A DNA stretch of 32,000 nt from Planktothrix sp. GU0601_MAG3. GTDB taxonomy: Bacteria > Cyanobacteriota > Cyanobacteriia > Cyanobacteriales > Microcoleaceae. The notes under the pieces were generated by a model. It had not been told where the DNA came from. It worked only from the letters and a program-made list of their open reading frames with translations, and searched no databases. Positions 3,836-31,863 of this stretch are shown piece after piece. The stretch covers positions 4,952,464 through 4,984,463 of the forward strand of contig CP136572.1 of assembly GCA_035193785.1 (NCBI GenBank), read 5' to 3'. How positions within the stretch are numbered: position 1 is the first letter of the stretch; every line of letters starts with the position of its first letter. The translations under genes were made by a program, and so were the position numbers.

Positions 3836-5186
3836 TCAATGCTCAATCATTTGTTCTAAAGATTCTTGCAAATCCCTGGTTAAGTTAGCAACTGCTTGAC
3901 GACGGTTTGTTTGATAATCTGACCATTTTTGGGTGACAGAAATCGGTTTACCAATTGTTAATTTAGCGCGTTTTTTTCCTAAATAGGGACGTTTTAGGGG
4001 GGTTTCTCCCTTTAACCGATTTACCATTGTCCAAACAATTAAAGTTGTTTCTGCGAAGCGATCAAAGGTGGGATTTTCTTTAATATAACTACCTGTTACC
4101 CCCACAAAACTTTCTACTAATCTCATATTCCACATTCGCAAACTGGCTTCGGTTGCCACCCGATCTGCTAATCCCAATTCTACCGCCGACCAGGTATCAT
4201 TAGCCTTGAGATCATAGCGATAAATACAATCCCAGCCCGCCTGTTCTAAGCGACGACAACGACTACTTAAATCTCCCATGGGTTTGAGATTAAAATATTC
4301 TTCAGCCACGGTTAGGGCAATATCTAATAATCGTTTAATTCTATCTGGAAAATCTATAGTTTCATCTTGGGGAATACTCCGATAATAGAATTGGCGATAA
4401 AAATTTTCCATTGTATCTAATAGATAGTTTCCTAATCGAATTAAACGGCTATATAGAGACGCAACGGTTAATTCTGGGCTAGATAGGGGTAGGTTACAAT
4501 CCCTTTCTAATTGGGAAATTAATTTTTCTAAATCTTCCCAATTGTCCTGAATATAAAAATACTGTATGCCAATGGGAACTAAATAAACATCTTCCGGTCG
4601 TGCAGCTTTTTTTAAATCTTCCACACACCAAAATCCTAATTGAGAAATTCCGGGTTTCTAAGGGACTAATATTTTGATTATGTCCATTGGTTGCTCCTTC
4701 CGGTGCGGCGGCTAAAGGAAATTGACCATTAATAAATAAATCCCGGGCTGAACGCAATCCTAAACGGTCAACTTTCCCCCTTAAAATTGGTGTTCCTCCT
4801 AATTTTGGAAATAGCCAAGAAACTAAGTTTCCTGCCCATAAAGGAATCCCTCGATCATACATAAAATGGGCATGAATTGGATTAGATAGGACAATTTCCT
4901 GTTGTTTTGCTGTCTCAGGAACAAATCGCCATAATAATTGACTAAGACAATAGGGATCATCCGTATTTGGATGACGAAAAGCCAATAAAAATCTAACTTT
5001 TCCGCTTTGAAATTGTTGATAAAGATTAACTAATCGTTCAATTTGTTCTATCTTAATTTCAACTAATGGGGTTTTCCATCTCATCCAAAAGGGCATCCCC
5101 CATTGGCAAACTTTTAACACTAAAGGATTAAAATGGGGCGGGATAAAATCTAGGGTGGGTTGTATATTTTTAATGATATTTACCAT
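3836..5186 (-). pseudogene. PlsC-type (HX4D) acyltransferase family protein, frame broken once
   Basis: The N-terminal ORF (4494-5186) carries FRHPNTDD (the HX4D motif) and AAPEGATNG. The C-terminal ORF (3836-4624) continues in the +1 frame. The break is at + strand GTTTC 4654-4658 (sense GAAAC). Removing one A gives ...NISPLE-PGISQLGFWCVEDLKKA..., a continuous protein of about 450 aa. Confidence 0.8.
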
Positions 5187-5645
5187 AAATTAGGGTTGAA
5201 TCAATTTAATAAGTATAGCAAGAGGCAATCTTGCTATAGGCAATCTTGCTATAGGTAAATACTTACTATGAGCAGCTTTTAGCTTTTAAGAATGTCCTAA
5301 CAGATGTGGCAACTGCTATATTAAAGGGGATTGAACTTAATCTATTATTATAGCAATTTCTCAGGATTTTGTTGTAATATTTGATTCCAGGGATTTCGGA
5401 TCAAACCTCTATTCTAGTTTGGGTTTGCAGGGACATCAATCCTAGATTTTTTGATAATTCCCGACCCTAAATTAAGTAAAAAGACTTATCATAGAACCCT
5501 TGAATTGTTCTGTCAAGTTATAAAATTTAACCACAATTCGTTACAATGACAACCAAACTTTAGCTCTAAAAACGGTTTGCTTTAAAAGGACAAATTATCA
5601 AGTTTTCACTTAGAAGGCAGGTAGAAAGGATGAAACCCCACCGAC

Positions 5646-6263
5646 TTGAATCAAGCATTTCAACATGGTTATTGTTTTCAAACTACCCTTGATCAGCATA
5701 GCGAGCAAGTTACCTATTCCGTCCATACCCTCGGTGAATTAGTTTTAACCTCTGGAAAAATTGCCGTTTGTGATCCTTTGGTTGTCCCTAATTCTCATCT
5801 GTGTTTGACTCAAACTCTGGCCGCGGGTCGTTATCCGGTGAAACTGAGTATCGCTACATTCCATGACCAAAAAGAACAAAGGGTCGCCTATGCCATGTTA
5901 GTCATTCGGGATCAAGCTGCGGTGCGATGGGAATTGGTGCTATCTTCTCAAAGGGATCAAGAATCGGGTTATTCCGTCACTTCTGGGACAGGATGTTTTA
6001 TGGATGGGGAAGGGGTCAAATACCTATCTTCCCTTTCTGATGGTGAGTTTGAAAGTTATTATAATCGTTTGGATCAGGCCTTAGATCAAAACTATCTTGA
6101 TACCTGGGATTGGACAAATTTCTGTTTCAATGAATCAACCGGATTGAATATTATTGCCTTTCATTCCGGTTGGGGAGAGGGTTGTTATCCCTCCTATTGG
6201 GGTTATGATTCCCAGGGAAATCCGGTCTGTTTAGTCACGGATTTTAGGCTTTGGGACTCGTGA
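5646..6263 (+). CDS. DUF4241-like hypothetical protein
   Basis: The 205-aa ORF has LTSGKIAVCDP, GTGCFMD and AFHSGWGEGCYPSYWGYD motifs, which I recall as DUF4241. As given it starts on TTG. An ATG at 5630 becomes in-frame (MNPTDLNQAFQ...) if one A of GAAAC 5632-5636 is removed. Confidence 0.6.
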   Translation: MNQAFQHGYCFQTTLDQHSEQVTYSVHTLGELVLTSGKIAVCDPLVVPNSHLCLTQTLAAGRYPVKLSIATFHDQKEQRVAYAMLVIRDQAAVRWELVLSSQRDQESGYSVTSGTGCFMDGEGVKYLSSLSDGEFESYYNRLDQALDQNYLDTWDWTNFCFNESTGLNIIAFHSGWGEGCYPSYWGYDSQGNPVCLVTDFRLWDS

Positions 6264-6801
6264 GGGGATCAACTACTTCCAATAGGGTTTGAATACTGGC
6301 ATTGTAATCAAAAAAGGAAAACAAATGTTTATATTTCAAGATGCCCTTTTTGTCTAAGACAAACTGCCCAGGTAAGGGCGCCCCCAGGGCTTGTCCCACA
6401 TGATATAACTGAAAAATGCCACAGCTTGGATTACTCAGCAATGGCATTTTCAACCCCAGATCTTTGACTACAATTTTGCTTTGGCGTTCATCGGTACTGG
6501 TAATCAGTAAAACTTCTATTCCCCTTTGCACAAAGGCTTCATAATTTTCATTCAGCGCTCTAACATGGGGATAACACCAGGGACAATATTGTTTTTCGGT
6601 AAAAATGCGCGTAAAGGCTAAAATTACTGGGCGATCGCCTCGAAATTGAGATAAACGCACTAATTGACCATTGGTAATATCGGGTAATTGAAAATCGGGG
6701 GTTTTCGACCCTAACTGTAAATTGCTAGTGGCCGGGATCGGAAAAAAGTTATTCCAAAATCGACGATTAATTAAACCGGTAAAATCGTTAGAAGTCAGCA
6801 T
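6244..6801 (-). CDS. Thioredoxin-fold redoxin / AhpC-TSA family protein with CPWC motif
   Basis: The 185-aa intact ORF has PDFQLPD...G..V.L..F.G...VILAF followed by QYCPWCYPH, a peroxiredoxin/thiol-disulfide oxidoreductase architecture. Confidence 0.75.
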   Translation of the reverse strand: MLTSNDFTGLINRRFWNNFFPIPATSNLQLGSKTPDFQLPDITNGQLVRLSQFRGDRPVILAFTRIFTEKQYCPWCYPHVRALNENYEAFVQRGIEVLLITSTDERQSKIVVKDLGLKMPLLSNPSCGIFQLYHVGQALGAPLPGQFVLDKKGILKYKHLFSFFDYNASIQTLLEVVDPLTSPKA

Positions 6802-6913
6802 AATAGTTTGTTGTTTGTACTCATCTTAGTTTAAAACAATCTTACAAAATCAATGAAACCCGCCTTTACATCATGGTAAAAACGGGCTTTTAAATCCGGT
6901 CTAAAAGGTGATC

Positions 6914-7508
6914 CTAGACCGCAGCAAAGAATTCTTTAGATTTGACGGGATCGGGGATCATGGTTTTGTCGCCCGGTTGCCAACCCGCAGGACAGACTTC
7001 ATCGGGATGAGCTTGAACATATTGCAGGGCTTGCAGTGTCCGCAGAGTCTCGTCCACGTTACGACCAAAGGCGAGGTTATTGATCGTGGAGTGTTGAATT
7101 ACCCCTTCTTTGTCAATGATAAACAGACCGCGCAGAGCAATTCCGGCTTCAGGATCAAGCACGTTATAGGCAGTGCTGATTTCTTTTTTCAGGTCAGCCA
7201 CCAGAGGATAGTTGAGGTCGCCCACACCACCAGATTTGCGATCGGATTGAATCCAAGCGAGGTGAGAAAAGGCGCTATCGACGGAAACCCCAAGAATTTG
7301 AGTATTGAGTTTGCTGAATTCTTCGGCGCGATCGCTAAAGGCCGTAATTTCAGTTGGGCAAACAAAGGTAAAGTCTAACGGGTAGAAGAACAGAAACCAC
7401 ATACTTACCCCGATAGTCGGACAGGGAAATGTCTTTGAATTCTTGGTCAACAACGGCCGTTGCTTTAAAATCCGGGGCGACTTGGCCAACACGCAGGCTC
7501 TCAGCCAT
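6914..7508 (-). pseudogene. Typical 2-Cys peroxiredoxin (AhpC/Prx1 type), frame broken near codon 38
   Basis: [15 protein letters not shown] and the C-terminal EVCPAGW are the two catalytic-Cys motifs. The real N-terminus [38 protein letters not shown] starts at ATG 7508 in another frame. The break is at + strand GAAAC 7393-7397 (sense GTTTC). Removing one T gives ...[19 protein letters not shown]. Confidence 0.9.
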
Positions 7509-7849
7509 GAATAATACTCCTTAAACTGACGATAGTATAGTTTCGTTGCAGAAAATCAGGACAATTTTGATCCCGATCGTCTGGCTATTTTACGATTTGT
7601 TACAAATATATCATAGTCGAAATGAGTACAGTTAGACAAGACTAAGTTGTAGGATTTGAGCAAAGGGAAGTCCCAGGCCCCTCAGATGTCTGTCCCCCAG
7701 TACCGTTATATAGGGAACAGGGAATAGGGAACACCGGATCTGGGTAGAGGATTTGTAATTAATTTTGTTTAGGTACTTACATCATTACTTCATAAAAATT
7801 TTATATTTTGTTTGACAAAAATAGAAATAACTCTGCCAAAATTCAGACT

Positions 7850-7888
7850 AAAAATGAAGGGTACAGATCAACTGCACCCTTTATTTTA
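7850..7888 (-). terminator. Stem-loop with flanking T-runs on both strands, a likely intrinsic terminator after the 77-aa ORF
   Basis: AAGGGTACAG-atcaa-CTGCACCCTT (7857-7881) forms a 10-bp stem with one mismatch. It is followed by TTTATTTT on the + strand and CATTTTT on the minus strand. Confidence 0.5.
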
Positions 7889-7908
7889 GTAATTCTATAT
7901 TTGGGCTA

Positions 7909-8142: not shown

Positions 8143-8304
8143 TGGTCTCAGACTCCAGTTTACATCATGGTTTATTTTTACATAGAATGCCGGATTTTGA
8201 ATCGGCTTACAAAGTATACTTTGATACTTTAATTATGGTTCCATCAATTCCATTCAGTGTTTGTTAAAAAGAATACAATTCTATTAACAACTATACAATT
8301 TACC

Positions 8305-8556: not shown

Positions 8557-8765
8557 ACGCAGAGGGTCAGATAGGGCATGAAAACCAGCCAGAACAGTTT
8601 TGACGGCGGGAAACCGCAGAAACCTCTATCACAATGTTTGCAACCATCAACGCTCTCCTAAATCGCGGTCAATAGCTCTAGCTTATCATTTTATTTTCGT
8701 CACTTGTAAAGGGCGAAAAGAAAGGAGACACAAAGGTACTAATAAACGAAGATACCGGAGTAAGA

Positions 8766-11700
8766 TTAAAGGGTTACTCCTTCTAAATCTGCTTCGGTTA
8801 ACTCATACAAAGATTTTAATTTTTCTAAAGTTTCGCCATCGGTTTCCCAAAATCCCCGACCATGGGCTTCTAACATTCGACCGACAATATTACGAAAAGC
8901 TTCGGGGTTGGCTTGTCTTAATTTAGTTGCCATGTTTTCATCTAAAGCATAGGTTTTAGAAGCTTGATCATAAACCCAATTTTCTTGGAAATTTGTTGTT
9001 CCTCCCCAACCCATTAAGGCGGTCATTCGTTGAGAAATTTCATAGGCCCCACCACTGCCTTGATTGACCATGGCCGTTGCCCATTTCGGGTTTAATAATT
9101 TTGTCCGATATTCAATTCTTAATAGGTCTTCTAATTGTCGGGGAGTGGTATCTTTAGAAAAACTTTCGACAAAACTGGCTTTAACTTTTTGACCTTTTTG
9201 TTGTTCCGCCGCCCGTTTTAATCCGCCCGTATTAGCATAATATTCTTGAATATCGGTTAATCCATATTCTACGGAATCAATTTGTTGAACAACATTATCC
9301 ATGGTTTTTAACAATTGCGTCATCACTTCCGGTCTGGCTTGTCCTTGATCTTTGCGTCCATAACTAAATACATTTCGTCCTTTCCAAGTGTCCGCTAATT
9401 CGTCTCCTGATTCCCAATTACCATCCACAATTTGATCATTAACTAACGATCCAAAATCCCCCGATGGGTTAGAAAATAAACGGGCGGACGGGTTTTCTAC
9501 TCCTTGCGATCGCAACTTCAAAGCGTGCTTTCTAATAAAGTTTTGTTCCTCCGCTTCTTCCGCATCCGCCGCCCGCACAAATAAATCATCTAATAATTCG
9601 ATAATATTGGCAAAACTATCTCTAAAAATCCCCGATAAATTGGCTAATATATCAATTCTAGGATGTCCGACTTGCTCTAAAGGTTGTAATTCATAACGCA
9701 CAATTCGCCCGGTTTCCTTCTTTAATTGGTTTGGCTCCCACTAATTCTAAGATAATTCCTAACGACTCCCCCCGGGTTTTAATAGCATCTAATCCCCATA
9801 ACATTACCGCAATGGTTTCAGGATAATTTCCGGTTTCTGCTAACTGTTGATTAATGATTTTTTGAGCAATTTCTCGTCCTCTCAAATAGGCCGCAGCCGA
9901 GGGCATTCGATAGGGATCTAGGGCATGAATATTACGTCCGGTGGGCAGAACTCCTGGCCCATCTCGCAGTAAATCCCCGCCCGGGGCTGGGGGGATATAT
10001 TCCCCATTTAATCCTTTTAATAAATTGGTTAATTCATCGGATGTTTGTAATAATAAGTCTCGAATTTGAGTTTCAGTTTCTGAGGTTAACTCATTCATTG
10101 ATTCGGTGGAATAAGCATTCAGATAGGTAGTTAATTCTTCTTCCGTTGGATTCTCTCCAAAGGTATGTAATCCCGATGAGAATAAACGCTGTTCTAAGAC
10201 TTGTAAATAATCATAGATTTTGATAAAATAGCTATAGAGAACTTCGACACTAAATAACCGAGCGTTTTCAGTTGTAAAGGCAATTCCTAATTTTTTGCCC
10301 TCCTGAAAGGGACAATCTACCTCTAAACCCATATCCACAATTTGCTGACTAATTGATTCTTGAAGGGTAGAATTTTTCTGCGGATCTTCTCGATATTCGG
10401 CAATTAAATCGCGTAAAGATACCAATTGTTTATAAAGTCCCGCCCGACCATAGGGAGGAACATTATAGGAAACTAACACCCCATAACCTCGACGTTTTGC
10501 TAACATTGATTCTGAGGGATTATTGGCTGCATAAAGATATAAATTTGGCAGATTTGCTAATAAAATATCTGACCAAGAATAGCCCGTATTTCCTAATGGT
10601 GATCCCGGCAACCATTCTACCGTGCCGTGCATTCCAAAATGAACAATTGCATCGGCTTGAAATTCCTTTTGTAGCCATTGATAAAAAGCCACATATTGGG
10701 GATGGGGGGTTAAATCTCGTTCAAACATTAACCGCATGGGGTCACCGGATAAACCTAAAGGCGGTTGCACTCCTACCCAAATATTTCCTAATTGAATTCC
10801 ACCAATATGATAATCTTCGCCAAAGGTTTTAATCCCGGTTTCTGTTAAGGATTTCCATTGTTTTTTAATCCGACTTCGTTGTAAATATCCTAACCATTTT
10901 TCCAGTTTATTAACATTAACTTGATTAGAAATAACAGAATTTTCTGCAAAACTAAAATCCTGTTGCGCTTCTAAGGTTTCATCGGCTATTTTTACCTTTT
11001 GAATTAAAACTTCCCCCGTTTCTGGCAACTCTCCAACGGTGTATCCTTGAGCTTTTAAGGCTTGTAAAACCTTTAATAAACTCTGGGGAACATTTAATAA
11101 AGCGGCGGTTCCTGTGGCTCCATATCCCGGGGGAAATCCATATAAAATAATCGCAATTTTTCGCTGTGATGGAGGTGTTTTTCGCAGTTGAATCCAACTT
11201 TTTACCCGTCCAGTTAAACGTTTAACTCGTTCAGGAATTAAATAAATATCTTCTCCTACTAACCCCCCCAAAGGAACGGTATCAATAGCACCATCAAGTT
11301 CCGGTAAAGCATATAAAACCACACTTTGTAAACCGCCAATTCCTTGACGAGTCCAAGATAATAAATCTTGAATTAATAGGGGCGCGGCGATAAAATAGGG
11401 AATATTTTTTATGGTTAAAATTTGTTTGGCAATTTCCACTTGTCGTCCGGCTTCCATTGATCCGGCTGGCCCTCCAACTAAAGGAAACCCAATGGTAGAA
11501 ACAATTGCATCAACGGTTACGGCTTCTTTTGATAAGGATAGGGTTTCTATTTTTCCCTGTTCTCGGTGATTCAATTCATCCGTTGTTGTCATCCAGTCTC
11601 TAACAGCAACATGACCTTCAACGCCATTAATAAAAATTGGTAAGGGAATTAATTGGGCTTGTTGAAAATAGCTAATTAGTTGGGGGATATAAGCTTGTTT

Positions 11701-12469
11701 AGTAATGACGTGCTTGCGATATATTAATATTCCCACAACGGGATCGTTAACGGCGTTGGGATATTGGGTTTTATACCATTCTAAATAGGCCTGTGGCGAT
11801 TCAAAATAACCGCTATAATCGGGGTGTAATAATCCCATATTTGGGGTTTCTATGGGTGGCGGAATTTCTCCAACAGTTAACCCTAAATAATTCGTTCCAA
11901 TTGTCCAGAACATCGCCGCGACATTTTCTGTTCCGCCCGCATTCCAATACCCATAAATAACTAACCAATTACGCAGGTCTTGAACTTTTTTAACCGGAAT
12001 AAATTTTAATAATTTCTGGCCTGTTTTCAAGAAACTAATATAACCAGCCAGTTTATCTTCTTCTTTACCACTGGAAAATTTACTCAAAATAAACTGCACT
12101 GGTTTGGGCATTCCTTTGGGTTTATCCCCAATTTTAAACGATCCAATTTGGGTTAAACTCATTAATTCTAAAGCGGATTCAAAAACCAACCGAATTGGAA
12201 TATTTTGTACCCGTTTCTCGTAACCATAATATTTGATCATAATCAAATAATAAACTGGCAAAAAATACATCGGCATTTTCCAAGGCGGCGGCGACGGTAT
12301 CCGGTTGATCAGAAATGGCGCGATCGCTAAATACACAAATTTCTAATTCTGGACAACGGGCGCTGGCTAATTTCGCGGCTATGCGATATAACTCAGCATT
12401 AAAAGACTCAAACCCAGCTATTAAAACAATCTTTTTCATAATCTTAGGTTTTAAAATATGCGTTTTCAT
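8766..12469 (-). pseudogene. CobN/ChlH(BchH)-family chelatase large subunit (about 1230 aa), frame broken twice
   Basis: Three consecutive ORFs (12179-12469, 9691-12336, 8766-9701) together form one CobN/Mg-chelatase-H type protein, with motifs LIAGFESFNAELY, RLVFESALELMSLT, HFGMHGTVEWLPG and NIHALDPYRMPS. Break 1 is at + GTTTC 12213-12217 (DQILWLRE-RVQNIPIRLVF). Break 2 is at + GTTTC 9712-9716 (KPIKEG-TGRIVRYELQP). Both are repaired by removing one A of sense GAAAC. Confidence 0.85.
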
Positions 12470-13116: not shown

Positions 13117-14121
13117 TTAGGAACAATTTTCAGCTAACCAATTTAATAAATCTGACTCCGTTTCAAAATCTAATAATGCTTCTCCTAATTGTTCAACTAA
13201 TTCAATCGGAAGACTGCGGATTTGATCTTGAATTTCGGGGTTAATTGCTCCTAAACGACGATTTAGCAAACGCAAAATAAACGTTATTTCTCGTTGCAAA
13301 CCCTGTTCTATTCCCTGTTCTATTCCCCGCTCTATTCCCTGTTCAATTCCCTGTTGTATTCCCTGTTGTATTCCCCGTTCAATTCCCTGTTCCATCCAAC
13401 TTGTAACAATTTCCATAAATCTTTCCTCCTGAATCAGTCCTAAGCGATTTAGTTCCTCGGTAAAAACGACTTTTTCGCTAGAATTTAAACGCAAATAGGA
13501 GTCGATAAACCCCGAAATTAATTGATTTCTGGCTGGATCTAACCGTAACGTTACTAACAGACGCAAACACTCTGCTTTAACCTGGGGTCGATCCTGGGGT
13601 TCTATTCTCATTTTAGCCATTAATGCAGCCGCCACCGGATTTTGCTGACGTAAAAAATCCCGCCAGTTTAAACGATTCAGTTGGATCGCTGCATAGCTAA
13701 ATTCTAATACCTTTCGGTCGGGAAATTCAACTTGATAGTTGTTGGGTTCCAGACGTTGGGGGGTATCGAAAGAAAAGATTGCAATCGGATAAACCGGAAT
13801 TGCATATTTTTCATCTAGTCTAGCAAAATAATGGAACATCCGCCGGGCAAAATCGGCTTGAGCGTAGGATTGAGTCTCGGTATGGATGAGGAAAAAACTT
13901 TCCTGTTCTCGAAACCTAACTTTTGCTAATAGATCGACCTCTCGACGATTCCCCGATGTCAGATCAATGAATACCTCCTGGGGTAAAAAGGTAATAGAGG
14001 ATTGATCAATATAGGGAATTAGATCTGGGAAAAATAATTCTAAAAATTCCCAAAAAAACGTCGAAATTAACTCTTTAAATAATCGATCATGTTCAATTAT
14101 TCGTTCTGAAGTTTCAGCCAT
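13117..14121 (-). CDS. Rpn-family recombination-promoting nuclease / putative transposase (PD-(D/E)XK) with DUF4351-like C-terminus
   Basis: The 334-aa ORF has the N-terminal HDRLFKELISTFFWEFLELFFP...REVDLLAKV...FLIHTETQS pattern typical of this cyanobacterially expanded family. An internal (Q/R)GI(E/Q) tetrapeptide repeat precedes a C-terminal helical region. Confidence 0.75.
   Translation of the reverse strand: MAETSERIIEHDRLFKELISTFFWEFLELFFPDLIPYIDQSSITFLPQEVFIDLTSGNRREVDLLAKVRFREQESFFLIHTETQSYAQADFARRMFHYFARLDEKYAIPVYPIAIFSFDTPQRLEPNNYQVEFPDRKVLEFSYAAIQLNRLNWRDFLRQQNPVAAALMAKMRIEPQDRPQVKAECLRLLVTLRLDPARNQLISGFIDSYLRLNSSEKVVFTEELNRLGLIQEERFMEIVTSWMEQGIERGIQQGIQQGIEQGIERGIEQGIEQGLQREITFILRLLNRRLGAINPEIQDQIRSLPIELVEQLGEALLDFETESDLLNWLAENCS
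13301..13396 (-). repeat. 8 x 12-bp in-frame tandem repeat (CCCTGTTCTATT and variants) encoding QGIE/RGIE/QGIQ units
   Basis: Units at 13301, 13313, 13325, 13337, 13349, 13361, 13373 and 13385 carry 1-3 substitutions each. They translate as GIERGIQQGIQQGIEQGIERGIEQGIEQG within the Rpn ORF. Confidence 0.9.
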
Positions 14122-15786: not shown

Positions 15787-15879
15787 TTAAAATTAATTCG
15801 GAAAATTGGTAATTGGTCTTGTAGGAGGGGTAAGAATTACTCCGGCTTTTTGCCCACCCTACTGATTTTTAAAGATTCT

Positions 15880-17269
15880 ATGGATATTTTTTTTAGCAGT
15901 ATTCCCAGTATTCCTGATTTAACTCATCCTAATGAATTAATGGAATTGGGATCAATAGTGATTAAAAACCTGATGAAATTGGCTATTTTTTTAATAGCAA
16001 TTGGTGGCATATTATCCCTAATTAATTGGTCGGTGAAAAAACCAGGGGATTCTATTTCTATTCCGGCGATTAAAACCGCCTTAGAACAATATCTGAAATG
16101 GATGCAAACTTTACCGCATTTAATTCTAATTGTTTCTGGTAATTACCAGTGGATTTTTTCTTTGTTCTACCTTAGCTAATCGCTATCATAATTGGGAACA
16201 ACAACGTATTACTCAAATTGCCACCACCGTCGCCGGAGAACGTTTAGAACAAACCGCACCTAGAATTCGTTATGAAATTGAAGAACCTTTTACCGATTAT
16301 AGATATATTGAGGGGAAAACTATTGAAATTAAAAGTACCCAGATTGCACCCCGTTGGATGACTTTATCAGGATCAAAAATTCAGGTTAAAATTAATCAAA
16401 CTACCAGTCCCGACACCAAACAATGGATTTATAGTGTTGATTTTTCGGGAGAATATCAAGTTAAAAATCAACTCAAAGGTGTCTCGGAATTTTTCTTTGA
16501 AGTTCCCCCACCTTACGGTTATTTATTATTACAGGATTTCCAAGTTGAACAAAATGGAAAACCCTTAGTACAAGTTAACCCTGGAGATTATGGATTTCCC
16601 TTTAAATTATCCCCGGGAGAAACCACAAATTTTAAGGTTAGCTATCAAGCTCAAGGTGCACCCCGTTGGGTTTATCAACCTGGGGAGCAATTATTGTCGA
16701 ATTTTAGCTTAAATGTTTTAGCTAACTTTCCCGATGCTGAATTTGCCGGAGCAGTGCCAACAGTTACAAAAGAAGCAGCAGAAAATCGACAACTTTCTTG
16801 GATTTATGAAGGTAATATTTCCGTTAAAAATCCGTTAGGAATATTTACCGCCACCGCTCCAATTCGCAATACAGGTGTTATCCCGCGATTATTATTATTA
16901 GCTCCAGCTATCTTTTTATGGTGGATTATTTTACTATATCTATCTTTACCCTTAACCTTGGGAGATGTGGCGATTATCGCCGGACTATTTTTTGCCTGTT
17001 TATTAACCCTAACCTATAGCAGTCGTTTGATTGATGCCAAACTTGCATGGACAGTAATTTCTCCAGTATTACTATTAGCAGTTTGGGGATTAGGGAAAAA
17101 CCGTCAAGCCTCTTGGGTGGCAATTATTTGTACAATTTCTGGGGGAATATTACCGATATTTGGTTTATTGGTTCCCTATAGCGGGATTACCTTAAGTTTA
17201 GCTGGGTTACTATCAGGAATCTGGTTAGCTTTTCAACATTGGTATGAATTAGGGAAACGGAAAGTTTAA
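15880..17269 (+). pseudogene. Hypothetical multi-pass membrane protein, frame broken once
   Basis: ORFs 15850-16179 and 16130-17269 overlap in frames offset by +1. The break window contains GTTTC 16133-16137. Removing one T gives a continuous hydrophobic helix ...LPHLILIV-LVITSGFFLCSTL. The C-terminal third is strongly hydrophobic. No family recognised. Confidence 0.6.
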
Positions 17270-17388: not shown

Positions 17389-18409
17389 TTATTGTTGAAT
17401 TACCGCATTTTCTAACATTAAAATCGTTCCGTGTTCAGCATCAATTTTGACCTCTATTCCCAGAGGAATAGTAAATTGATCACGAATATGACCGATCATC
17501 GAACCATACCAAGCCGGAATTCCTAACGGTTTAATTAAATCCGTTAATACTTGCCATAGGGTTAAAGAGGGTTTCATTTCCCTCTCCTTTGGTGCAGGCG
17601 GTACATTGACTAAAAATAAACCCAGAAATTTGATCTAAAATTCCAGCTAATTTTAAATGGGTTAACATTCGATCAACTCGGTAAATATCCTCGCCAACAT
17701 CTTCTACAAATAGGATCGTATTCCGCCAATTGGGTAAATATTCAGAACCTACTAAAGCGGATAAAACCGATAAATTTCCTCCGATTAATCTTCCCTCGGC
17801 TTGACCTGGATAAATCGTTTCGACCCGAACATTGGCAGGATTTTTAAAGGTTACAGTTTGTCCCTCAAATATAATTTTTTTCAGCCAACCAACCGAATAG
17901 GGATTCCAGAGGGAAGTGCCTAATAATCCATGAAAAGTAACTAATCCGGTTTGACTATATAATCCTAATAATAAAGCGGTAATATCACTATAACCGAGAA
18001 AGATTTTAGGATTTTTACGAATTAAATCATAATCTAATAATGGTAAAATTCGACCGCTGCCCCAACCTCCACCCGTCGCAATAATTCCCTGAATATTAGG
18101 GTCAGCAAACATTTGATTAATGTCTGATGCCCGTTGTTGATCGGTTCCGGCTAAATAGCCATATTCACTCATTACATGGGGGGCAACTTTAACAGCGAGT
18201 TCCTGTTGGGCTAATTGCAGTTGAATCAACTTTAAATGTTCTTTTAAAATGGGGCTGGCGGGAGTTACCAACCCCACCGTATCTCCTGGTTTTAAAGCGA
18301 GAGGTTTAAGTAATATTTGGGAAGATGGAGATTGAGCAAGAATAGGAAACTGATTAGTAATTCCTGCTAAAGTTAATCCGGTTAAAAAATCACGACGATT
18401 CATAATCAT
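17389..18409 (-). pseudogene. S66-family LD-carboxypeptidase with a twin-arginine signal peptide, frame broken once
   Basis: MNRRDFLTGLTLAG is a Tat motif, with GGWGSGRILP and the GYSDITAL nucleophile motif. The C-terminal 62 aa (17389-17577) are in the +1 frame. The break is at + GTTTC 17571-17575 (sense GAAAC). Repair gives ...CTKGEGNE-PSLTLWQVL... Confidence 0.85.
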
Positions 18410-18426: not shown

Positions 18427-19168
18427 TCATTTACTTGAATTGAGAATTTGATCAATTAATTCTTCAACCCCTAATCCCCGACTATTTTTCGTGACCCAAT
18501 TAACCTTTTCTTTAACTTGGGGTAAGGCATTAGCAACGGCTACGGAATAACCACATTGTTGTAAAAAATCACAATCATTTTCTGCATCCCCAACCCCAAC
18601 AATTTTTTCCGGGGATAGGTTGATTAATTCGGAAAGAGTTTTTAACCCAAAGGCTTTATTGATACCTACGGGTAGAATCATTATGGCTCCTTTATTATTA
18701 ATAATTTCAAGATTAACTCCTAACTCTTGAATCGTTTTTTGGGTGATTTCTAAATAGGGTTCCCAAGTGGCAATAATTACTCGTCCAATCCCTAAAAATT
18801 CTAAGGCTTGAGCCTGAGAAATCTTTAAAAATTCCTCTGGAATGGGTTGGTTTTGCAATTGTTGTTGTTTTTGGTGAATGCGATCGCGCAAGCGGGTTAT
18901 AAACGCTTCAGAAGGGCGCTCCGCTAACAATTTTTCTATCTGAGTCGAGGGTTGATATAATACCGCTCCATTTTCTGCAATCACCCAATCAAACCTATTA
19001 ATTATGGGAACATGATCAATTAAATTATCCAGTTGTCTTCCCGTAATTAAGATTAACTTTCTTCCCGACTCTCGCCACCGTTGTAGGGCTTTTAAAGTAG
19101 ACTCCTCTACGATTCCATCCATTGCTAGGGTTTCCATCAAAATCCGTCGCCAAAGCCAAATATTTCAT
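18427..19168 (-). pseudogene. HAD-superfamily (Cof/IIB-like) phosphatase, frame broken at codon 12
   Basis: GVGDAENDCDFL is HAD motif IV. ATG 19168 opens MKYLALATDFDG, then the frame slips at + GTTTC 19130-19134 (sense GAAAC). Removing one A restores the catalytic motif I, DFDGTLAMDG. Confidence 0.8.
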
Positions 19169-23323: not shown

Positions 23324-24626
23324 ATGACTTCTCCATTCCCTTCTCGGAAAAAACCTAAAGTTCTCCAATTATTCTTTTTCAGTTTTGTGGTTTTATTTCT
23401 GGCTAGTACCTCGGCAATTCTCGGGGCAATGACGGCCCTATTAACTCCCGAAAAATTTGATTTTACTGAGCCGGAATCCAATATTTTAGATGGGTTATGG
23501 CAACATCGGTTTAAATATAGTTTATCTCGTCCAGTTAATATTTTAGTCTTGGGAATTGATGGCAACCCTAACAGTTCTTCCGCCTCTCCCGATCTGTTTA
23601 AAGGTCGCAGTGATACGGTGTTATTTGTCAATTTTCAACCCCAGGATAAATCCGTAAGTCTGTTATCAATACCCCGGGATACTCAGGTTTCAAATTCCAG
23701 GTTATGGTACGGGAAAAATTAATGAAGCTAATTATTGGGGTGGCCCTAAATTAGCAAAAGAAGTGATTCAAAATATTTTAAATAAAGTTGAAGTCAACCG
23801 TTATATTCGGGTTAGTAGCGGTGCATTTAGAGAATTAGTTAATTCTTTAGGAGGAGTAGAAGTTTATATTCCCCAACCCATGTCCTATCAAGATAAAACC
23901 CAAAAATTAAAAATTGATTTAGCTCCCGGTTGGCAAACAATTAATGGCGAACAGGCGGATCAATTTGTGCGGTTTCGGGGGGATGGTTATGGAGATTTAG
24001 GTCGGGTACAGCGTCAACAAGCATTAATGGAAGCGATTTTAGTTCGACTTAAAGATCCGACGGTTTTACCTCGTGTTCCTGAAATTATTCGGATTATGCA
24101 AAAATATATTGATACCAATTTAAACTTTGAGGAAATTTTAACTTTAGTTAATTTTGGTTTGAATCTGGAACCCCAGAATTTTAAAATGGTAATGTTACCT
24201 GGTCGCTCTAGTTCTGAGGATTTTAATAGTAGTTATTGGTTAATTGATGAGCGGGGACGCGATCGGGTTATGTATCAATATTTTCGTTTAGATTCAACCG
24301 GATACACCTTAAAAAGTGCCTACGAACCTTCAGCTTATGAAACTTTATCCAAGGATTTAAAAATTGCGATTCAAAATGTTTCTAGTAATCCTAAATCCGC
24401 AGAGAAAATGCTCAATTTTTTAGCCGACCAAGGATTTAGTCAAGTTTATTTAGCTCCGACTGAATCCACTCAACAACTGAAAACCCAAATTATTGTTCAA
24501 GGCGGAGATTTGGGGGCGGCTAAACTAATGCAAAAAAACCTGGGTTTAGGTGAGCTTAAATCCTCCTCCACGGGGGAAATTGGCTCGGATTTAACCATTA
24601 GGGTCGGAGAAGATTGGATCAATTGA
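23324..24626 (+). pseudogene. LytR-CpsA-Psr (LCP) family cell-envelope protein, frame broken once
   Basis: An N-terminal TM helix, then NILVLGIDG...GRSDTVLFV...LLSIPRDT. Downstream, in the +1 frame, come IPGYGTGKINEANYWGGP and VNSLGGVEVYIP. The break window contains GTTTC 23687-23691. Removing one T gives IPRDTQV-QIPGYGTGKIN. Confidence 0.85.
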
Positions 24627-24754
24627 TTAACAATCTAGGGATTTGCTCTTATCACCCAATTCGGGATTGGCAAATCCTCGAATAAAATATGACAATCTAT
24701 CGAAAATTGCTATACAATATAAAGTAGTTGTTAAGAAAATTCCGATGGATGTCT

Positions 24755-26240
24755 ATGACTGCTAATGCACCTGTTAAAACGGATTACGAAGCGATTATTG
24801 GGTTAGAAACCCATTGTCAATTGAACACAGACACCAAGATTTTCTCCAATTCTTCGACGAAATTTGGAGCCGATCCTAATATGAATATTGATCCCATTTG
24901 TATGGGATTACCTGGTGTACTACCTGTATTAAATGAAAAAGTTTTAGAATATGCAGTAAAAGCCGGGTTAGCCCTGAATTGTGAAATTGCACCCTACAGT
25001 AAATTTGATCGCAAACAATATTTTTATCCTGATTTGCCCAAAAATTATCAAATTTCTCAATATGATTTACCCATTGCCATAAATGGTCATTTAGAAATTG
25101 AAATTGTCGATGAAGATGGTAGTTTCCACTCGCAAAACTATTGGGATTACTCGCTTACATATTGAAGAAGATGCGGGAAAATTAGTCCATGGCGGCAGCG
25201 ATCGGCTTTCCGGTTCCACCTATTCCATGGTTGATTATAACCGGGCTGGAATTGCTTTAGCTGAAATTGTATCTGAACCGGATATTCGCTCGGGACAAGA
25301 AGCCGCCGAATATGCCCAAGAATTGCGTCGCATTGTGCGTTATTTGGGCGTGAGTGATGGCAATATGCAAGAGGGTTCCCTGCGATGTGATGTTAATATT
25401 TCCGTGCGTCCGGTGGGGCAAAAAGAGTTCGGAACTAAAGTTGAAATCAAAAATATGAACTCTTTTAGTGCTATCCAACGGGCAATTGATCATGAAATCG
25501 AACGGCAAATTAAGGCGATTGAAACCGGGGAAGAAATTTTTCAAGAAACCCGTTTATGGGAAGAGGGAAGTCAACGGACAATTAGTATGCGGAAAAAAGA
25601 AGGAGCAAGCGATTATCGCTATTTTCCTGAACCCGATTTGCCGCCAATTCAAGTATCTGCTGAACAATTAAAAACCTGGAAATCTCAATTACCCGAACTC
25701 CCAGCAGAAAAACGCCATCGCTATGAATCAGAATTAGGATTATCCCCCTATGATACCCGTGTATTAACGGATGATCACCCGATTTCTGAATATTTTGAAG
25801 CCACAATTGCCGCCGGAGCTAATATTAAACAAGCGGTAAATTGGATTATGGGTGATATTACTGCCCATATAAAAAATGAAAAATGCAGTGTAACTGAAAT
25901 CGCTTTAAAACCGGAAGGATTAGCAGAATTAATTGCTTTAATTGAAGCCGGAACTATTAGCGGTAAAATTGCTAAGGATTTATTACCCGAACTCTTAACC
26001 CAAGGTGGATCTCCTAAAGCATTAGTTGAAGCAAAAGGATTAATTCAATTATCCGATCCTAAAGCATTAGCAGAAATTATTGATCAAGTTTTGCTAGAAA
26101 ATCCCAAGGAATTAGAACAATATCACGCAGGGAAAACCAAACTCCAAGGATTTTTTGTCGGTCAAATTATGAAAAAAACTGGCGGACGGGCTGACCCAAA
26201 ACTCACCAATCAAATCTTAGGAGAAAAACTCAAAAAATAA
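24755..26240 (+). pseudogene. gatB: Aspartyl/glutamyl-tRNA(Asn/Gln) amidotransferase subunit B, frame broken once
   Basis: [33 protein letters not shown], then in the +1 frame [19 protein letters not shown] and the full C-terminal YqeY-like tail. The break window contains GTTTC 25122-25126. Removing one T gives [20 protein letters not shown]. The start could be ATG 24755 or 24749. Confidence 0.93.
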
Positions 26241-26248
26241 ATAGTTTC

Positions 26249-26286: not shown

Positions 26287-26295
26287 ATTTTAAGA

Positions 26296-26547: not shown

Positions 26548-26709
26548 AGTTCAAACTCAATAAAAATTATATCAATCTATTTGATCTTGATTATATTTTA
26601 AGGGTTAGGGGGATTTTTTTGCAAATATTAATTCAAAATTTGTAGACAAACTTAACCTAATCTTTGTTACAATAGATCCTAGCAGTTATAGCAGGCAGTC
26701 TGTGTTAAT

Positions 26710-27204
26710 ATGGTTCGCTACACCCTAGCTCAAAGTCCCGAAATCGTTCTTACCATCCGAGGCAAAGATTCATCTCAAGCCCGGGAGAAAGCGATGGACA
26801 AACTGATGGAATTGATAGACGCGGGTAAACTACCAACGGAATTGGAAGAAGGCTTTAGTCCCCAACAGTTCATCGAAGTCAAGGAGCCCGATGATAGTCC
26901 CTTAGAAGAAGAAGATGCTATTTCCGAAGCCGTGCAAATTCTGAGTAATTTGGCTTCCTTGAAATTAAAGATGATGGAATCAAGAGAAGAAGCCCTAAAA
27001 GTGCGAGAATCTATTGATATTCTGTTCACAGATCAACCCGTGACTGTAGAAGAAATAACCGAATTAAAAGACGGCTTTAAGGTGTTAAAAAATTTCGCGG
27101 TTTCCAATCTTAGATATCGAGAAGCTAGGGGCAAAGCGGAAGAAGCCAGAGCCGTTTTAGATGAAGCATTAAAATCTTCCGAAACCCGAACCAAAACCAG
27201 ATAA
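26710..27204 (+). CDS. Hypothetical acidic, helix-rich protein (164 aa)
   Basis: Intact ORF with E/K-rich helical composition. The two antisense ORFs in the track are less plausible. No family recognised. Confidence 0.55.
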   Translation: MVRYTLAQSPEIVLTIRGKDSSQAREKAMDKLMELIDAGKLPTELEEGFSPQQFIEVKEPDDSPLEEEDAISEAVQILSNLASLKLKMMESREEALKVRESIDILFTDQPVTVEEITELKDGFKVLKNFAVSNLRYREARGKAEEARAVLDEALKSSETRTKTR

Positions 27205-27331
27205 TCCCCAGGGGAAAAAAGATAAAAAATAACTTTAAAATAGGGAATGGGGAATAGGCAATGGGCAATAGTGATGAATTTTTCGAGTATTCTAATAAGA
27301 GCAGTAATCATTATTTCCTCTTTTCCTAAAA

Positions 27332-27720
27332 CCCATTATCGATCACGGATTTAAAAAGATTACGCAGATTAACACAGATTAAAATCCGTGAAATCCGCGA
27401 AATCCCCCTAAATCCGCGATCCCGATTACCGCTCACGGATTCAAAAGGATTACGAAAATTAACACATATTAAAATCCGTGAAATCCTTGAAATCCCCCTA
27501 AATCCGCGATCCCGATTACCGCTCACGGATTCAAAAGGATTACGAAAATTAACACATATTAAAATCCGTGAAATCCTTGAAATCCCCCTAAATCCGCGAT
27601 CCCGATTACCGCTCACGGATTTAAAAGGATTAGGAAAATTAACACATATTAAAATCCGTGAAATCCGCGAAATCCCCCTAAATCCGCGATCCCGATTACC
27701 GCTCACAGATTGAGGTAGAT
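27332..27720. repeat. Tandem repeat, unit about 90 bp, about 4.3 copies, ending 1 nt before the CorA-like start codon
   Basis: Units are 27332-27420 (89 bp, divergent), 27421-27510 and 27511-27600 (identical to each other), 27601-27690 (a few substitutions) and 27691-27720 (partial). Each unit holds an inverted repeat TCACGGATT...AATCCGTGA and four AAATCC sub-repeats at about 10-nt spacing. Confidence 0.95.
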
Positions 27721-27721
27721 T

Positions 27722-28480
27722 ATGAAATTACCCCTGACTTGGAATCTTCCCGTCACAATTTCCGATCGCTTAGGTCAAAAAAGTTTTGGCAAACAACGGG
27801 CGATTGTAGCAGAAGATAACCTATTATTAGTATTACATAAAGCCCCAGAACCCGGCGATCGCAATCGAGATGCCGTATTATTTTGGCGAAAACCCGATGG
27901 CCGTTGGGAATGCAGTAAAGGTGGTGTGGCACTGCAACAATTAACCAATCATATTAAAGAGTATAATTCAGCCGAAGAAGAATTAAATCAATTCTATAAA
28001 ATTGCTAAAACCGCCGAAGATTATTTTACACTATTAGAAGCGATTACCCCCCTACAGTTAGCAATAGAAAACCTGCACGCCACCTTACAAACCGCTAGAG
28101 AAGCTATCCCTCAAGATCGAGATCTAATTGATTTCAGAGATGGAGCCTATGAAATTGAACGCACCCTAGATATCCTTTATACTAACACAAAAAATGCCCT
28201 AGATTTCAAAGTTGCCAAAGAAACAGAATCCGCAACTAAAGCCGCCCATCGCCTTAATACCTTAGCCTCAATTTTCTTACCCCTGACGGCAATTTCCTGT
28301 GTATTTGGGATGAATTTAACCAGTGGTCTTGAATCCCAATCTATCCTAATATTTTGGATAATTTTTTTAGCCGGAATCTGGTTAGGATTAGTAGTCAGAC
28401 AATGGGTGCTTACCGGAAAAATTTCTCAATTAAGTTTCAGCAAATTAGCAATAGATTTAAAACGAGAATTATCAGATTAG
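27722..28480 (+). CDS. CorA-like divalent-cation transporter family protein (short form, GMN motif)
   Basis: 252-aa ORF. The C-terminus LASIFLPLTAISCVFGMNL is followed by a second TM helix (ILIFWIIFLAGIWLGLVV), the CorA/ZntB 2-TM GMN architecture. The N-terminal soluble domain is short relative to canonical CorA. Confidence 0.7.
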   Translation: MKLPLTWNLPVTISDRLGQKSFGKQRAIVAEDNLLLVLHKAPEPGDRNRDAVLFWRKPDGRWECSKGGVALQQLTNHIKEYNSAEEELNQFYKIAKTAEDYFTLLEAITPLQLAIENLHATLQTAREAIPQDRDLIDFRDGAYEIERTLDILYTNTKNALDFKVAKETESATKAAHRLNTLASIFLPLTAISCVFGMNLTSGLESQSILIFWIIFLAGIWLGLVVRQWVLTGKISQLSFSKLAIDLKRELSD

Positions 28481-28636
28481 ACAGGTTTATGCAGACCAAC
28501 CCATCACCCCATGTTGCCCATAGCCGATAGACTATTCCCCATTCCCTATTATTTAACTTGTCAGCGCCAGGATGAGTTTTAATGATATGATGGAAGTTTT
28601 GCATACTCACCAAACAACCACCAAAGGAGAAGCCAA

Positions 28637-29633
<997 letters not shown>

Positions 29634-29636
29634 ATT

Positions 29637-29730
29637 AGCAGGGGGAGTAGGGGGAGGAGGAGCAGGGGGAGCAGGGGGAGTGGAGGAGCAGGGGGAGTGG
29701 AGGAGTGGAGGAGTGGAGGAGCAGGGGGAG
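29637..29730. repeat. G-rich repeat block (GCAGGGGGAG units interspersed with GTGGAGGA octamers), six G5 runs
   Basis: Read directly, starting 4 nt after the ilvC stop. It is complementary in character to the C-rich block at 29820-29870. Confidence 0.9.
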
Positions 29731-29742
29731 TAATTATTTATT

Positions 29743-29819
29743 CCTAACTTCTAACTTCTAACTTCTAACTCCTAACTCCTAACTTCTAACTCCTAACTCC
29801 TAACTTCTAACTTCTAACT
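29743..29819. repeat. Heptanucleotide microsatellite, 11 x CTAACTY (STRR-like)
   Basis: Units start at 29743 with period 7. The seventh base follows the pattern T T T C C T C C T T C. It resembles the short tandemly repeated repetitive heptamers known from filamentous cyanobacteria. Confidence 0.9.
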
Positions 29820-29870
29820 CCTTCCCTCCCCTGCTCCCCCTGCCTCCCCTGCTCCCCCTACTGCCTCCCT
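29820..29870. repeat. C-rich block, inverted counterpart of the G-rich block
   Basis: CTTCCCTCCCCTGCTCCCCCTGCCTCCCCTGCTCCCCCTACTGCCTCCC. Its reverse complement contains GCAGGGGGAGCAGGGGAGG units like those at 29637-29730. Confidence 0.85.
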
Positions 29871-30093
29871 ATTTTACTGGCTGACCCTTATCAAGTTTTT
29901 CAATTTCTTTCTCCCGTTGTTCGTTAGTATCTTTAGGTTTTAACCACTGTGGCCATAAACTAACAACAAACTGACGACTGGTTTTACTGGCATCTCTGGC
30001 AGGTTTGGGCAAAAATTTAAACGTATCGCCCGAGGAAATAAACAGAACAATTAAGGCGACGGCGCCCCAGCCCAGAATTTTTTTAGGAGTCAT
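29869..30093 (-). CDS. Small hypothetical protein with an N-terminal TM/signal-anchor helix (74 aa)
   Basis: Intact ORF with hydrophobic ILGWGAVALIVLFISS followed by a charged tail. No family recognised. Confidence 0.45.
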   Translation of the reverse strand: MTPKKILGWGAVALIVLFISSGDTFKFLPKPARDASKTSRQFVVSLWPQWLKPKDTNEQREKEIEKLDKGQPVK

Positions 30094-30179
30094 AAGCGAT
30101 TTTTTAGATAGAGATATTTATGGGATTTTATTGTAATCAAATTTGAAAATTTTGTACACCCTGACTATGATTATACCCA

Positions 30180-31863
30180 TTAATACTGAGTTTTTAATAA
30201 GTCTTCAATAAAAACTTGAGTTTCCGGGGGAATATCAGTAATTAAACGCACCGGAAAAGCGGGAGTTGAGATAAATTGATAATATTCTGGAGTCAGGAAT
30301 ACCTGATATTTTTGGGCTTCGGGAGTCAGTTGGGCGGCGGTGGCTAAAACCATAGCTTTAGCATAATTCTTAACATCTTGTGAGGCATCTCCCACGATTT
30401 CACCCCCGGAAATGGGAGTCACAGGAATCCAACTTTGATCCCCAATAGTTCCAGGATCTCTGACACTTAAATGGGTGGCTCCTAAAACCCCTAATAATAA
30501 TTTTTCGGTTTTAATTTGGGGAAAAATAGCAATTTGTTCGGGTAAAGCGGGGGTGACTTTATCGGATGATTGGGTAAGAATTAAAGTAGGAACTTGAACT
30601 TGATTTAATCCTGTTTTTCCAAATATAACCGAAGCAGTGGGGGAAAATGCGATCGCCCGTTTAATTCGTGGGTCACTAAACCGATAACGATCATTTGGGA
30701 GTTTCTGCGGCTAAACATTGGGTAGCTTTTCCCAGACTAAAGGTAATAAAACTCTGATCACAACTTTTCCTTAATTGATCAATTTGGAACTCTCCCCCAG
30801 CTAAAGCTAAAGCCGTTGCTCCGCCGAAAGAATATCCAAATACTAAAGTATTATTAGTATTAAATTTACCTTTAAATCTAGGATCATTTATATTCAATTT
30901 TTCTAATTCATTCAAGGTAAAAATCAAATCTTGGGGACGTTCGATAATTTCCGTGGGAGATAAAAATAAATTCTGATTTACAAAATTCGCGTTACTCCCG
31001 GGGTGTTCGGGCACAATAACCGTATAGCCATGGGAGGCTAAATGTTCCATTAAATATCGTAATTCTTGATAATCAGAACCTCGACCATGGGAATAAAGAA
31101 TTAAGGGTTGATCGGGTGTAGCTGCGGAGGAAGAATAAATATAAACCGGAATATTGCGATCGCGTTGTTTATCCAGTAATTCTATGCGAGTAATTTCCAC
31201 TTTTCCTGGCCCGGGTTGACTAGGATCAAAAGGAATTGATGGAGCTTGAGATCCTTCAGGGGTGAGTTTAGGTAAGACCTCTAAAAGTAACCTTTGAGTT
31301 TGCCAAAATCCTTGATTTAATCGTGTTAAAACCGCAAAAGCTTGCGGAAGATTAATCTCAATCGTCGGTAAAGGATAGTTTTCTAAAAAATTAATAACGG
31401 ATAAGCCCTGTTCAGATTTAGCCGAAGACAGAATAGCTGTTTTAATCGCTGTTCCACCTTGAGATTTGTCCGCAGAAATAATCGTATCAATATCAGTTAA
31501 TAATCTAGTTCCCACTTGACTATTAACAATTTCTTCAACGGTTTCATCTTTAATTTTAATTTTAATGTTTAAAGCTCCTAAAGCCTGTTGCTTTTGTTCG
31601 GGCTTTAAAAAGCTAAAATAACCCAATAATCCCACAGGAACTTTCCCCGTTTCTGCAAATTCTTTTAAGTCTTTAACGGAAACCGTCGCATAAATAAATC
31701 CCTGTCTAATCACAACGGATTCCGCCGCCAGCAGGGGGGGGGTAAACGGAGGAAAACCACTTAAAATAGTAGTTGTGAAAAGACTCAGGGGAAACAACAA
31801 TTTTTTCCACTGGCGTTTGGCGCACTGTGCGGAAGCAGAAAGGGGAATTTGAACCATAATCAA
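30180..31863 (-). pseudogene. DUF1400-domain alpha/beta hydrolase, frame broken once
   Basis: The N-terminal part (30691-31863) has a DUF1400-like segment (VVIRQGFIYATVSVKDLKEFAETGKVP), then LILYSHGRGS and the nucleophile elbow GYSFGG. After + GTTTC 30701-30705 (sense GAAAC) the protein continues in the +1 frame without stops through 30423-30700 into ORF 30180-30422. Repair gives ATQCLAAE-LPNDRYRFSDPRIKRAIAFSP...GATHLSV... Confidence 0.8.

Follow-up and report, generated by a model that had tools for sequence, protein, structure and literature searches.

A stretch of 32,000 nucleotides from the cyanobacterium Planktothrix sp. GU0601_MAG3 (MAG3; contig CP136572.1, positions 4,952,464 to 4,984,463), referred to as the window throughout, raises the question of why so many of its genes are interrupted: among its approximately 30 genes, 12 are present as 25 pieces, every break being a +1 shift of the reading frame within a GAAAC or GTTTC pentamer. 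Are these genes broken in the organism, or only in the sequence that was deposited for it? The breaks are almost certainly artefacts of some kind, and there is very little doubt that they are single-base insertion errors in PacBio Sequel II high-fidelity (HiFi) consensus reads, which do not belong to the genome of the organism. As a genomic feature, the split genes are not real.

Extra bases at GAAC/GTTC sites

A sequence-only reading of the window had listed 13 frame breaks, and its description of them holds: the pentamer is present at every listed site, the downstream frame is +1 throughout, and deletion of one base from each 3-nt run joins every pair or triple of open reading frame (ORF) fragments into a single ORF. 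Eleven of the 13 coordinates were also right, but the pentamer in the membrane protein gene starts at 16132 (not 16133) and the break in the ArsR-family gene lies at 8610-8614 (not 8619-8623). In the latter case, the relatives described below place the break in the neighbouring pentamer (they read GGGAACCGCAGAAAC, versus GGGAAACCGCAGAAAC in the window), and the restored junction is IVIEVSAVPAVKT instead of the proposed IVIEV-LRFPAVKT; the downstream GAAAC at 8619 is retained in L057, L007 and L010 and has diverged in L061 and L008. The total was short by one, because a 14th extra base at 27181-27185 had been missed. The corrected C-terminal tail of the small ORF that contains it (...SSEPEPKPDNPQGKKDKK) agrees with that of a relative (...SSEPESKPDNYQGKKDKK). 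This insertion causes no obvious split, which indicates that scans for frame breaks undercount this class of error.

The association with the pentamer is well beyond chance. Each shift is confined to an interval of 20-206 nt, and the probability that all 13 listed intervals contain the pentamer is approximately 10^-7.3. The window has 1151 exact 3-nt runs of A or T, only 122 of which are GAAAC or GTTTC, and its longer A/T runs (166 of length 5, 56 of length 6 and 16 of length 7) are free of extra-base errors. The glyS gene, which is intact, carries GTTTC at 1141 and 1432 and GAAC at 1158, just as had been remarked from the sequence. At the 14 sites of the window the sense strand reads GAAAC in nine cases and GTTTC in five, and the G of the pentamer is found at codon positions 1, 2 and 3; with two orientations and every codon phase represented, a ribosomal or transcriptional signal is ruled out. 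Core genes are among those split (ilvC, gatB, the chelatase and the 2-Cys peroxiredoxin, in addition to cytochrome f in the flank). Such lesions, which hit essential genes irrespective of strand and codon phase, are biologically implausible.

Comparison with related genomes shows that they lack the extra base at every site open to comparison. When GTDB genomes were scanned with the corrected chelatase sequence, seven close relatives were obtained, whose indels were listed by BLASTN; the corrected hydrolase, in turn, led to two Planktothrix-like contigs in metagenomes (L080 and L081), and contigs of three acyltransferase orthologues (L086-L088) covered the left part of the window. At 12 of the 13 listed sites, and at 27181, relatives with approximately 85-93% nucleotide identity lack exactly one A/T of the pentamer run and read GAAC/GTTC or a synonymous variant. 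The GTDB relatives confirm 8610, 9712, 12213, 16132, 17571 and 19130, the metagenome contigs confirm 23687, 25122, 29060 and 30701, and for 4654 and 7393 the confirmation at the DNA level comes from the acyltransferase contigs. The chelatase gene, split into three in the window, is one unbroken gene of 1233 codons in all seven close relatives. The other 1-nt coding indels in the BLASTN comparison with the GTDB relatives are two compensating pairs in divergent stretches of this same gene, and in the aligned coding DNA no unpaired 1-nt difference is attributable to the window except at GAAC/GTTC sites.

Two sites need a separate comment. At 4654 the context is GAAACCC, so that the extra base could be A or C; a protein search with the corrected acyltransferase returned orthologues of approximately 449 aa with (L/I)EPG at the junction in 120 of 120 cases, which identifies it as A. 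At 5632 the putative extra base may equally be A or C, and this site has no counterpart in the relatives, whose syntenic block lacks the DUF4241 gene. This gene, located between the acyltransferase and the redoxin gene (5216-6130), is found only in the genome of the window. The block to the left of approximately 7787 (boundary at 7750-7787) sits elsewhere in all GTDB relatives.

The corrected proteins are full length, with continuous domains. The AhpC-TSA domain runs uninterrupted over the junction of the 2-Cys peroxiredoxin (1-123 of 124 positions in Pfam) and the KARI_N match of the ilvC product is continuous (2-165 of 165, Pfam), as are the S66C domain of the LD-carboxypeptidase and the LytR_cpsA_psr domain of the LytR-CpsA-Psr (LCP) protein. 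The ArsR-family protein matches HTH_5, the HAD/S6PP-like hydrolase recovers its DFDGTL motif, and all 560 aa of the larger hydrolase are matched in one tblastn stretch by both L080 and L081.

Table 1. Extra-base sites in the window, with the genes in which they lie. Positions are those of the window; labels beginning with L are those of the relatives' sequences.
Gene	Extent	Extra base	Strand	Relatives' reading or effect of correction
Lysophospholipid acyltransferase-like, 449 aa	3836-5186	A/T at 4654..4658	-	Sense GAAAC; L086-L088 read GGTTCT
DUF4241	5630-6263	Putative A at 5632..5636, directly after ATG	+	Deletion gives MNPTDLNQ... in frame with DUF4241 domain
2-Cys peroxiredoxin	6914-7508	A/T at 7393..7397	-	CAGAACCAC in L086, whose 197-aa peroxiredoxin is intact
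ArsR-family regulator		8610..8614	-	Window GGGAAACC; L057, L007, L061 read GGGAACC/AGGAACC
CobN/ChlH-family chelatase, 1233 aa; second break, near C-terminus	8766-12469	A/T at 9712..9716	-	GGTTCC in 7/7 close relatives
Same chelatase; first break, near N-terminus	8766-12469	A/T at 12213..12217	-	Relatives one base shorter: GTTC (L009, L034, L061) or synonymous GCTC / CTTTC
Membrane protein, 472 aa	~15850-17269	T in GTTC, 16132..16136	+	Relatives read ATTGTTCTGG
LD-carboxypeptidase (Peptidase_S66)	17389-18409	A/T at 17571..17575	-	L057, L034 read GGGTTCATT
HAD/S6PP-like hydrolase; break near N-terminus	18427-19165	A/T at 19130..19134	-	L057 reads AAGTTCCATC; L007, L034 read GTGCC
LytR-CpsA-Psr (LCP)	23324-24626	T at 23687..23691	+	L081 one base shorter (CAAGTCCAAAT)
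gatB	24728-26240	T at 25122..25126	+	L081 one base shorter (CAGTGCAACT); GatB_N matches both fragments
Small ORF	26710-27204	27181..27185 (14th site)	+	Window GAAAC, L081 GAAC (TCTGAACCCGAA); last 12 codons altered
ilvC	28637-29633	A at 29060..29064	+	L081 reads CTACGAACAGGG
DUF1400/alpha-beta-hydrolase, 560 aa	30180-31863	A/T at 30701..30705	-	L080, L081 read GGGAGTTCTGAGG

The phenomenon does not stop at the borders of the window. Sixteen kb of flanking contig were rebuilt from look-up loci, so that 48 kb were covered overall, and nine further extra-base sites were found there (window-relative positions ~-7969, -6448, -4099, -2953/-2878/-2829, 33016, 34141, 35695, 36821 and 38025). One of the genes concerned, for a sensor kinase, is hit twice, and others encode, for example, an amidase, a T2SSE ATPase, a dynamin-like GTPase and cytochrome f. 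The frame breaks at 33016 and 34141 and the silent site at approximately 35695 were confirmed against relatives. The sequence-only reading had expected breaks elsewhere to be enriched for the pentamer, and all eight candidate frame breaks in these flanks indeed carry GAAAC or GTTTC within their slip interval. Extra-base density is equal inside and outside the window: approximately 23 of approximately 335 GAAC/GTTC sites are affected in the 48 kb, which corresponds to 7% of the sites and to 0.48 per kb. What distinguishes these sites is not apparent from their surroundings, since no extended motif was found over ±30 nt when 20 hit and 310 unhit GAAC sites were compared by single bases and two-base classes (best p = 0.003 in 600 tests). 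A C directly follows the motif at 11 of the 20 hit sites, against a background of 0.25, but this excess is lost after multiple-test correction, and local GC content is alike at hit and unhit sites.

Origin of the extra base in the reads

Exact-protein look-ups, including that of the intact glyS product, placed the sequence of the window on contig JAULAM010000015.1 (3.54 Mb) of assembly GCA_030545275.1. According to the paper announcing this assembly, the source was an enrichment culture from Han River water, the data consist solely of PacBio Sequel II HiFi reads (run SRR25183167), and the metagenome-assembled genomes (MAGs) were obtained by hifiasm-meta assembly followed by binning. The same paper describes MAG3 as a cyanobacterium of 5.1 Mb and 40.5% GC whose 16S sequence is 99% identical to Planktothrix/Oscillatoria, and gives it 5,913 coding sequences (CDS), versus approximately 4,300 in reference Planktothrix genomes (+37%), with a BUSCO score of 95.9%. 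The inflation in the window (12 genes in 25 pieces among approximately 30 genes) is close to this genome-wide excess. The paper gives BUSCO scores of 100% for the run's five remaining MAGs, with CDS counts like those of their references; judging from this published table, only MAG3 appears to be affected within the sample.

The sample has a single run, and the Logan contigs are an independent k-mer assembly built from those same reads. They are 100% identical to the window over 2,419, 11,951 and 2,019 nt and contain the split genes likewise, ilvC for instance, so that, in the 16.4 kb compared, no site differs between the two assemblies of the reads. One Logan contig begins at window position 7751. 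The contig ends, which were checked for signs of read heterogeneity at the sites, coincide with repeats and not with GAAC sites. The identity of the Logan and hifiasm-meta assemblies implies that the extra base was already present in the HiFi consensus reads: it was introduced neither by hifiasm-meta, nor by the Geneious re-assembly, nor by polishing. The earlier proposal of a context-specific sequencing, basecalling or polishing artefact, possibly set off by a DNA modification at some GAAC/GTTC sites, is supported (HiFi-only data, relatives without the extra base, indifference to strand and codon phase), with the refinement that the error arose neither in assembly nor in polishing. The extra base is also missing from close genomes sequenced on other platforms, including those of PCC 11201 and PCC 9631, for which Illumina MiSeq at approximately 150x was used, as described in the Planktothrix comparative-genomics paper.

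Could the extra bases be real nonetheless? They would then represent either a massive recent pseudogenisation by GAAC-specific insertion or insertions compensated by programmed recoding. Two circumstances weigh in favour of this possibility and against an artefact: the HiFi reads are mutually consistent, giving two identical assemblies, and all reads of the strain come from this one platform, with none from an independent one to contradict them. Taken literally, however, the sequence would mean that 12-13 of approximately 30 genes are broken, including ilvC, gatB, the chelatase and cytochrome f, yet the organism grew in enrichment culture. The motif occurs in both sense-strand orientations and in three codon phases, the insertions are missing from relatives at 92% identity, and one of them lies one codon past a start codon, another seven codons ahead of a stop. 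Real extra bases are thus highly improbable, and the variant that the sequence-only reading had kept as its alternative, genuine insertions with compensating recoding, is effectively excluded, given the in-frame orthologues, the two orientations and all three codon phases.

The known biological processes that come closest fail on the same points. Programmed +1 frameshifting and transcriptional slippage also produce an apparent +1 break at a short recurring sequence within genes that are otherwise intact, but real recoding sites are specific for strand and phase and are conserved in orthologues, whereas the window sites are neither; with no fixed strand or phase and all orthologues in frame, this explanation was rejected. 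Genome decay, as in Mycobacterium leprae or recent endosymbionts, likewise interrupts a large share of genes, but through varied lesions at random positions that spare essential genes. Here each coding 1-nt difference attributable to the window is one and the same lesion, a +1 at GAAC/GTTC, and essential genes are not spared; genuine pseudogenisation was rejected as well.

Candidate triggers of the error

Why should a HiFi read gain a base at these sites? A purely technical answer would be a context error that arises in the chemistry or the software of circular consensus sequencing and owes nothing to DNA modification. It has in its favour that the insertion lengthens an A/T run by one base, which is the commonest class of HiFi error, and that C is mildly enriched after the motif. 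But approximately 93% of the GAAC/GTTC tetramers, identical as they are, escape the error, and hit and unhit sites cannot be told apart by any flanking motif; the much longer runs of 5, 6 and 7 A/T are clean; and five other MAGs of the same single-molecule real-time (SMRT) run have BUSCO scores of 100% and normal gene counts. To our knowledge, HiFi assemblies in general do not carry anything near 0.5 frameshifts per kb. A context error of this kind is therefore improbable. The untouched tetramers, the absence of a flank rule, the clean longer runs and the apparently normal state of the other MAGs together indicate that the trigger is a property of the DNA of this organism, very probably a site-specific modification. 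A related problem is known from nanopore sequencing, in which methylated motifs cause systematic, motif-bound and organism-specific errors that survive polishing and whose false frameshifts can be removed with the help of homologues (Homopolish). The difference is that here the errors are in HiFi data, usually deemed free of the problem, and consist of a +1 insertion at a subset of a 4-mer instead of substitutions or deletions at every methylated motif.

Among known modifications, phosphorothioation of the DNA backbone by Dnd systems (DndABCDE; studied in E. coli B7A, Salmonella enterica Cerro 87 and Riemerella anatipestifer) offers the closest likeness, and it is the most likely single candidate for the trigger, although one that falls somewhat short of being probable. 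Dnd modification has a GAAC/GTTC core, affects both strands and is detectable by SMRT sequencing; all 14 window sites and all nine flank sites are GAAC/GTTC plus one A/T. In E. coli B7A, phosphorothioate was found at 4,855 of 40,701 GAAC/GTTC sites (12%) on both strands, and in Salmonella at less than 20% of sites, or 0.84 per kb, at reproducible positions for which the selection rule is unknown. The Dnd pattern of a minority of sites (generally below 20%), fixed positions, no strict extended consensus and a density of approximately 0.5-1 per kb is the pattern seen here, with approximately 23 of approximately 335 sites. Moreover, phosphorothioate alters the kinetics of the SMRT polymerase.

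On this basis the following mechanism may be proposed. In native MAG3 DNA the polymerase would report one extra A·T within AA/TT at a fixed set of approximately 7% of GAAC/GTTC sites (0.5 per kb), with Dnd-type phosphorothioation at 5'-GpsAAC-3'/5'-GpsTTC-3' on both strands, flanking the AA:TT step, as the preferred trigger. At the A or T next to the modification the polymerase would stall; stalling could lead to repeated non-productive binding of the cognate nucleotide, so that an extra identical base would be called on both strands; and the consensus, and then any assembler, would accept it.

Several observations speak against phosphorothioate as the trigger. The kinetic signal that it leaves in SMRT data is described as relatively weak, so that an insertion in more than 50% of reads would be unexpected, and its occupancy per site is reported to be partial within a population. 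The effect itself also differs, a called extra base being unreported for Dnd systems, which shift the interpulse duration, and the literature searched yielded no report in which insertion errors or frameshifts in HiFi data are tied to phosphorothioate or to another modification. The flank preferences are unlike those of the enterobacterial Dnd systems, which favour M-GAAC/GTTC-K and avoid TGAAC(A/C): C is found at +1 at 11 of 20 sites, and TGAACC, rarely modified in E. coli B7A in common with TGAACA, is hit three times. This discrepancy weighs little, since flank bias is not defining across phyla. Finally, dnd genes and the sulphur chemistry are hypothetical for MAG3: among the 120 best matches listed, out of more than 7,000 DndC homologues, none belongs to the contig of the window. 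The Planktothrix comparative-genomics paper mentions neither dnd nor restriction systems.

DndC is nevertheless at home in this phylum. Two queries were used, from the dnd island of E. coli 55989 and from the truncated dndC of a Picosynechococcus plasmid. The matches listed for the former are only enterobacterial and other proteobacterial, while the best 120 matches of the latter are mostly cyanobacterial DndCs and include Nostoc, Calothrix, Fischerella, Symploca and Desertifilum, which shows that DndC is widespread in cyanobacteria. Two further DndC candidates came from other samples, and dndBCDE has been reported in Microcoleus. In two cyanobacterial loci only the C-terminal part of dndC is present (L079 6001-6810, on a plasmid of Picosynechococcus sp. 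PCC 7117, and L089 1672-2667). One of these remnants lies downstream of a gene annotated as 'phosphorothioation-associated methyltransferase', and the other adjoins an SBD-HNH (ScoMcrA-like) nuclease and has dndD and dndE downstream, which suggests decayed or rearranged phosphorothioate islands.

The same artefact might have another trigger, that is, a different modification, known or undescribed, at a subset of GAAC/GTTC sites, such as a bulky adduct on A/T or a deazaguanine at the G. This is a serious rival, although a somewhat less likely one than phosphorothioate. The read-level, organism-specific and site-fixed evidence fits it equally well, and both the weak SMRT signal of phosphorothioate, which would favour a more disruptive lesion, and the flank preferences unlike those of known Dnd systems speak for it. 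On the other hand, we know of no other modification system that joins a 4-bp GAAC/GTTC core with an occupancy below 20% and no extended motif, and methyltransferases modify nearly all of their sites. For deazaguanine, the error would be expected at the G and not within the AA run; the motifs known from phages are GA and GGC, and no link to GAAC was found in the literature on its sequence context. It is also conceivable, if unlikely, that the sites are the footprint of a real polymerase-stalling mark that is not phosphorothioate and is chemically undescribed, placed in Dnd-like fashion at a fixed minority of GAAC/GTTC.

Other features of the window and significance of the errors

The left end of the window is occupied by a CRISPR array, at 59-559 and probably from base 1, in which the 37-nt repeat GTTTCAGTCCCGCAAGCGGGATTATTTTTATTGAAAC occurs at least 7-8 times, with spacers of 36-42 nt. 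The repeat starts with GTTTC and ends with GAAAC, as is usual for repeat termini, and is the source of 16 of the pentamers in the window. No cas genes were called in the window or within 9 kb to its left. A DUF4351 gene (13117-14121) shows in-frame length variation of 12 or 24 nt versus the relatives in a short tandem repeat of TTCCCTGTT-like units at 13319-13380. At 27330-27400, 27620-27700 and 29640-29760 lie a duplicated element (…AAAATCCGTGAAATCCGCGAAATCCCCCTAAATCCGCGATCCCGATTACCGCTCAC…), approximately 60 nt in length, and a tandem repeat rich in G (units GGAGCAGGGG / GGAGTGGA), and it is at these repeats that the short Logan contigs end. In one of the relatives' contigs (L086 3811-5965; JGI contig LHMISPF_alex1_c1775), an extra A in a run of five A interrupts glyS opposite position 1392 of the window; it is a homopolymer error of the ordinary kind, unlike the motif-bound errors of the window.

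In practical terms, approximately one third of the genes are falsely split in a MAG that was published as 'high-quality, circular' from HiFi reads, and analyses of pseudogenes, pangenomes or recoding that make use of it would be misled. HiFi-only assemblies can thus hold dense, motif-bound and organism-specific frameshifts that survive consensus and assembly, although these can be recognised and repaired through the GAAAC/GTTTC signature in combination with homology. If a modification is indeed the trigger, the errors would map modified sites at base resolution in existing public HiFi data, with no need for kinetic files. Even if the mark were ordinary phosphorothioate, an effect strong enough to place an extra base in HiFi reads would be a new observation; if it were an undescribed one, the approximately 2,000 false frameshifts in the public assembly would provide a ready genome-wide map of it. 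The GAAC/GTTC insertions may mark where the DNA of a Planktothrix-like cyanobacterium is partially modified and, should this be the case, partial modification of the GAAC/GTTC type would extend to bloom-forming cyanobacteria.

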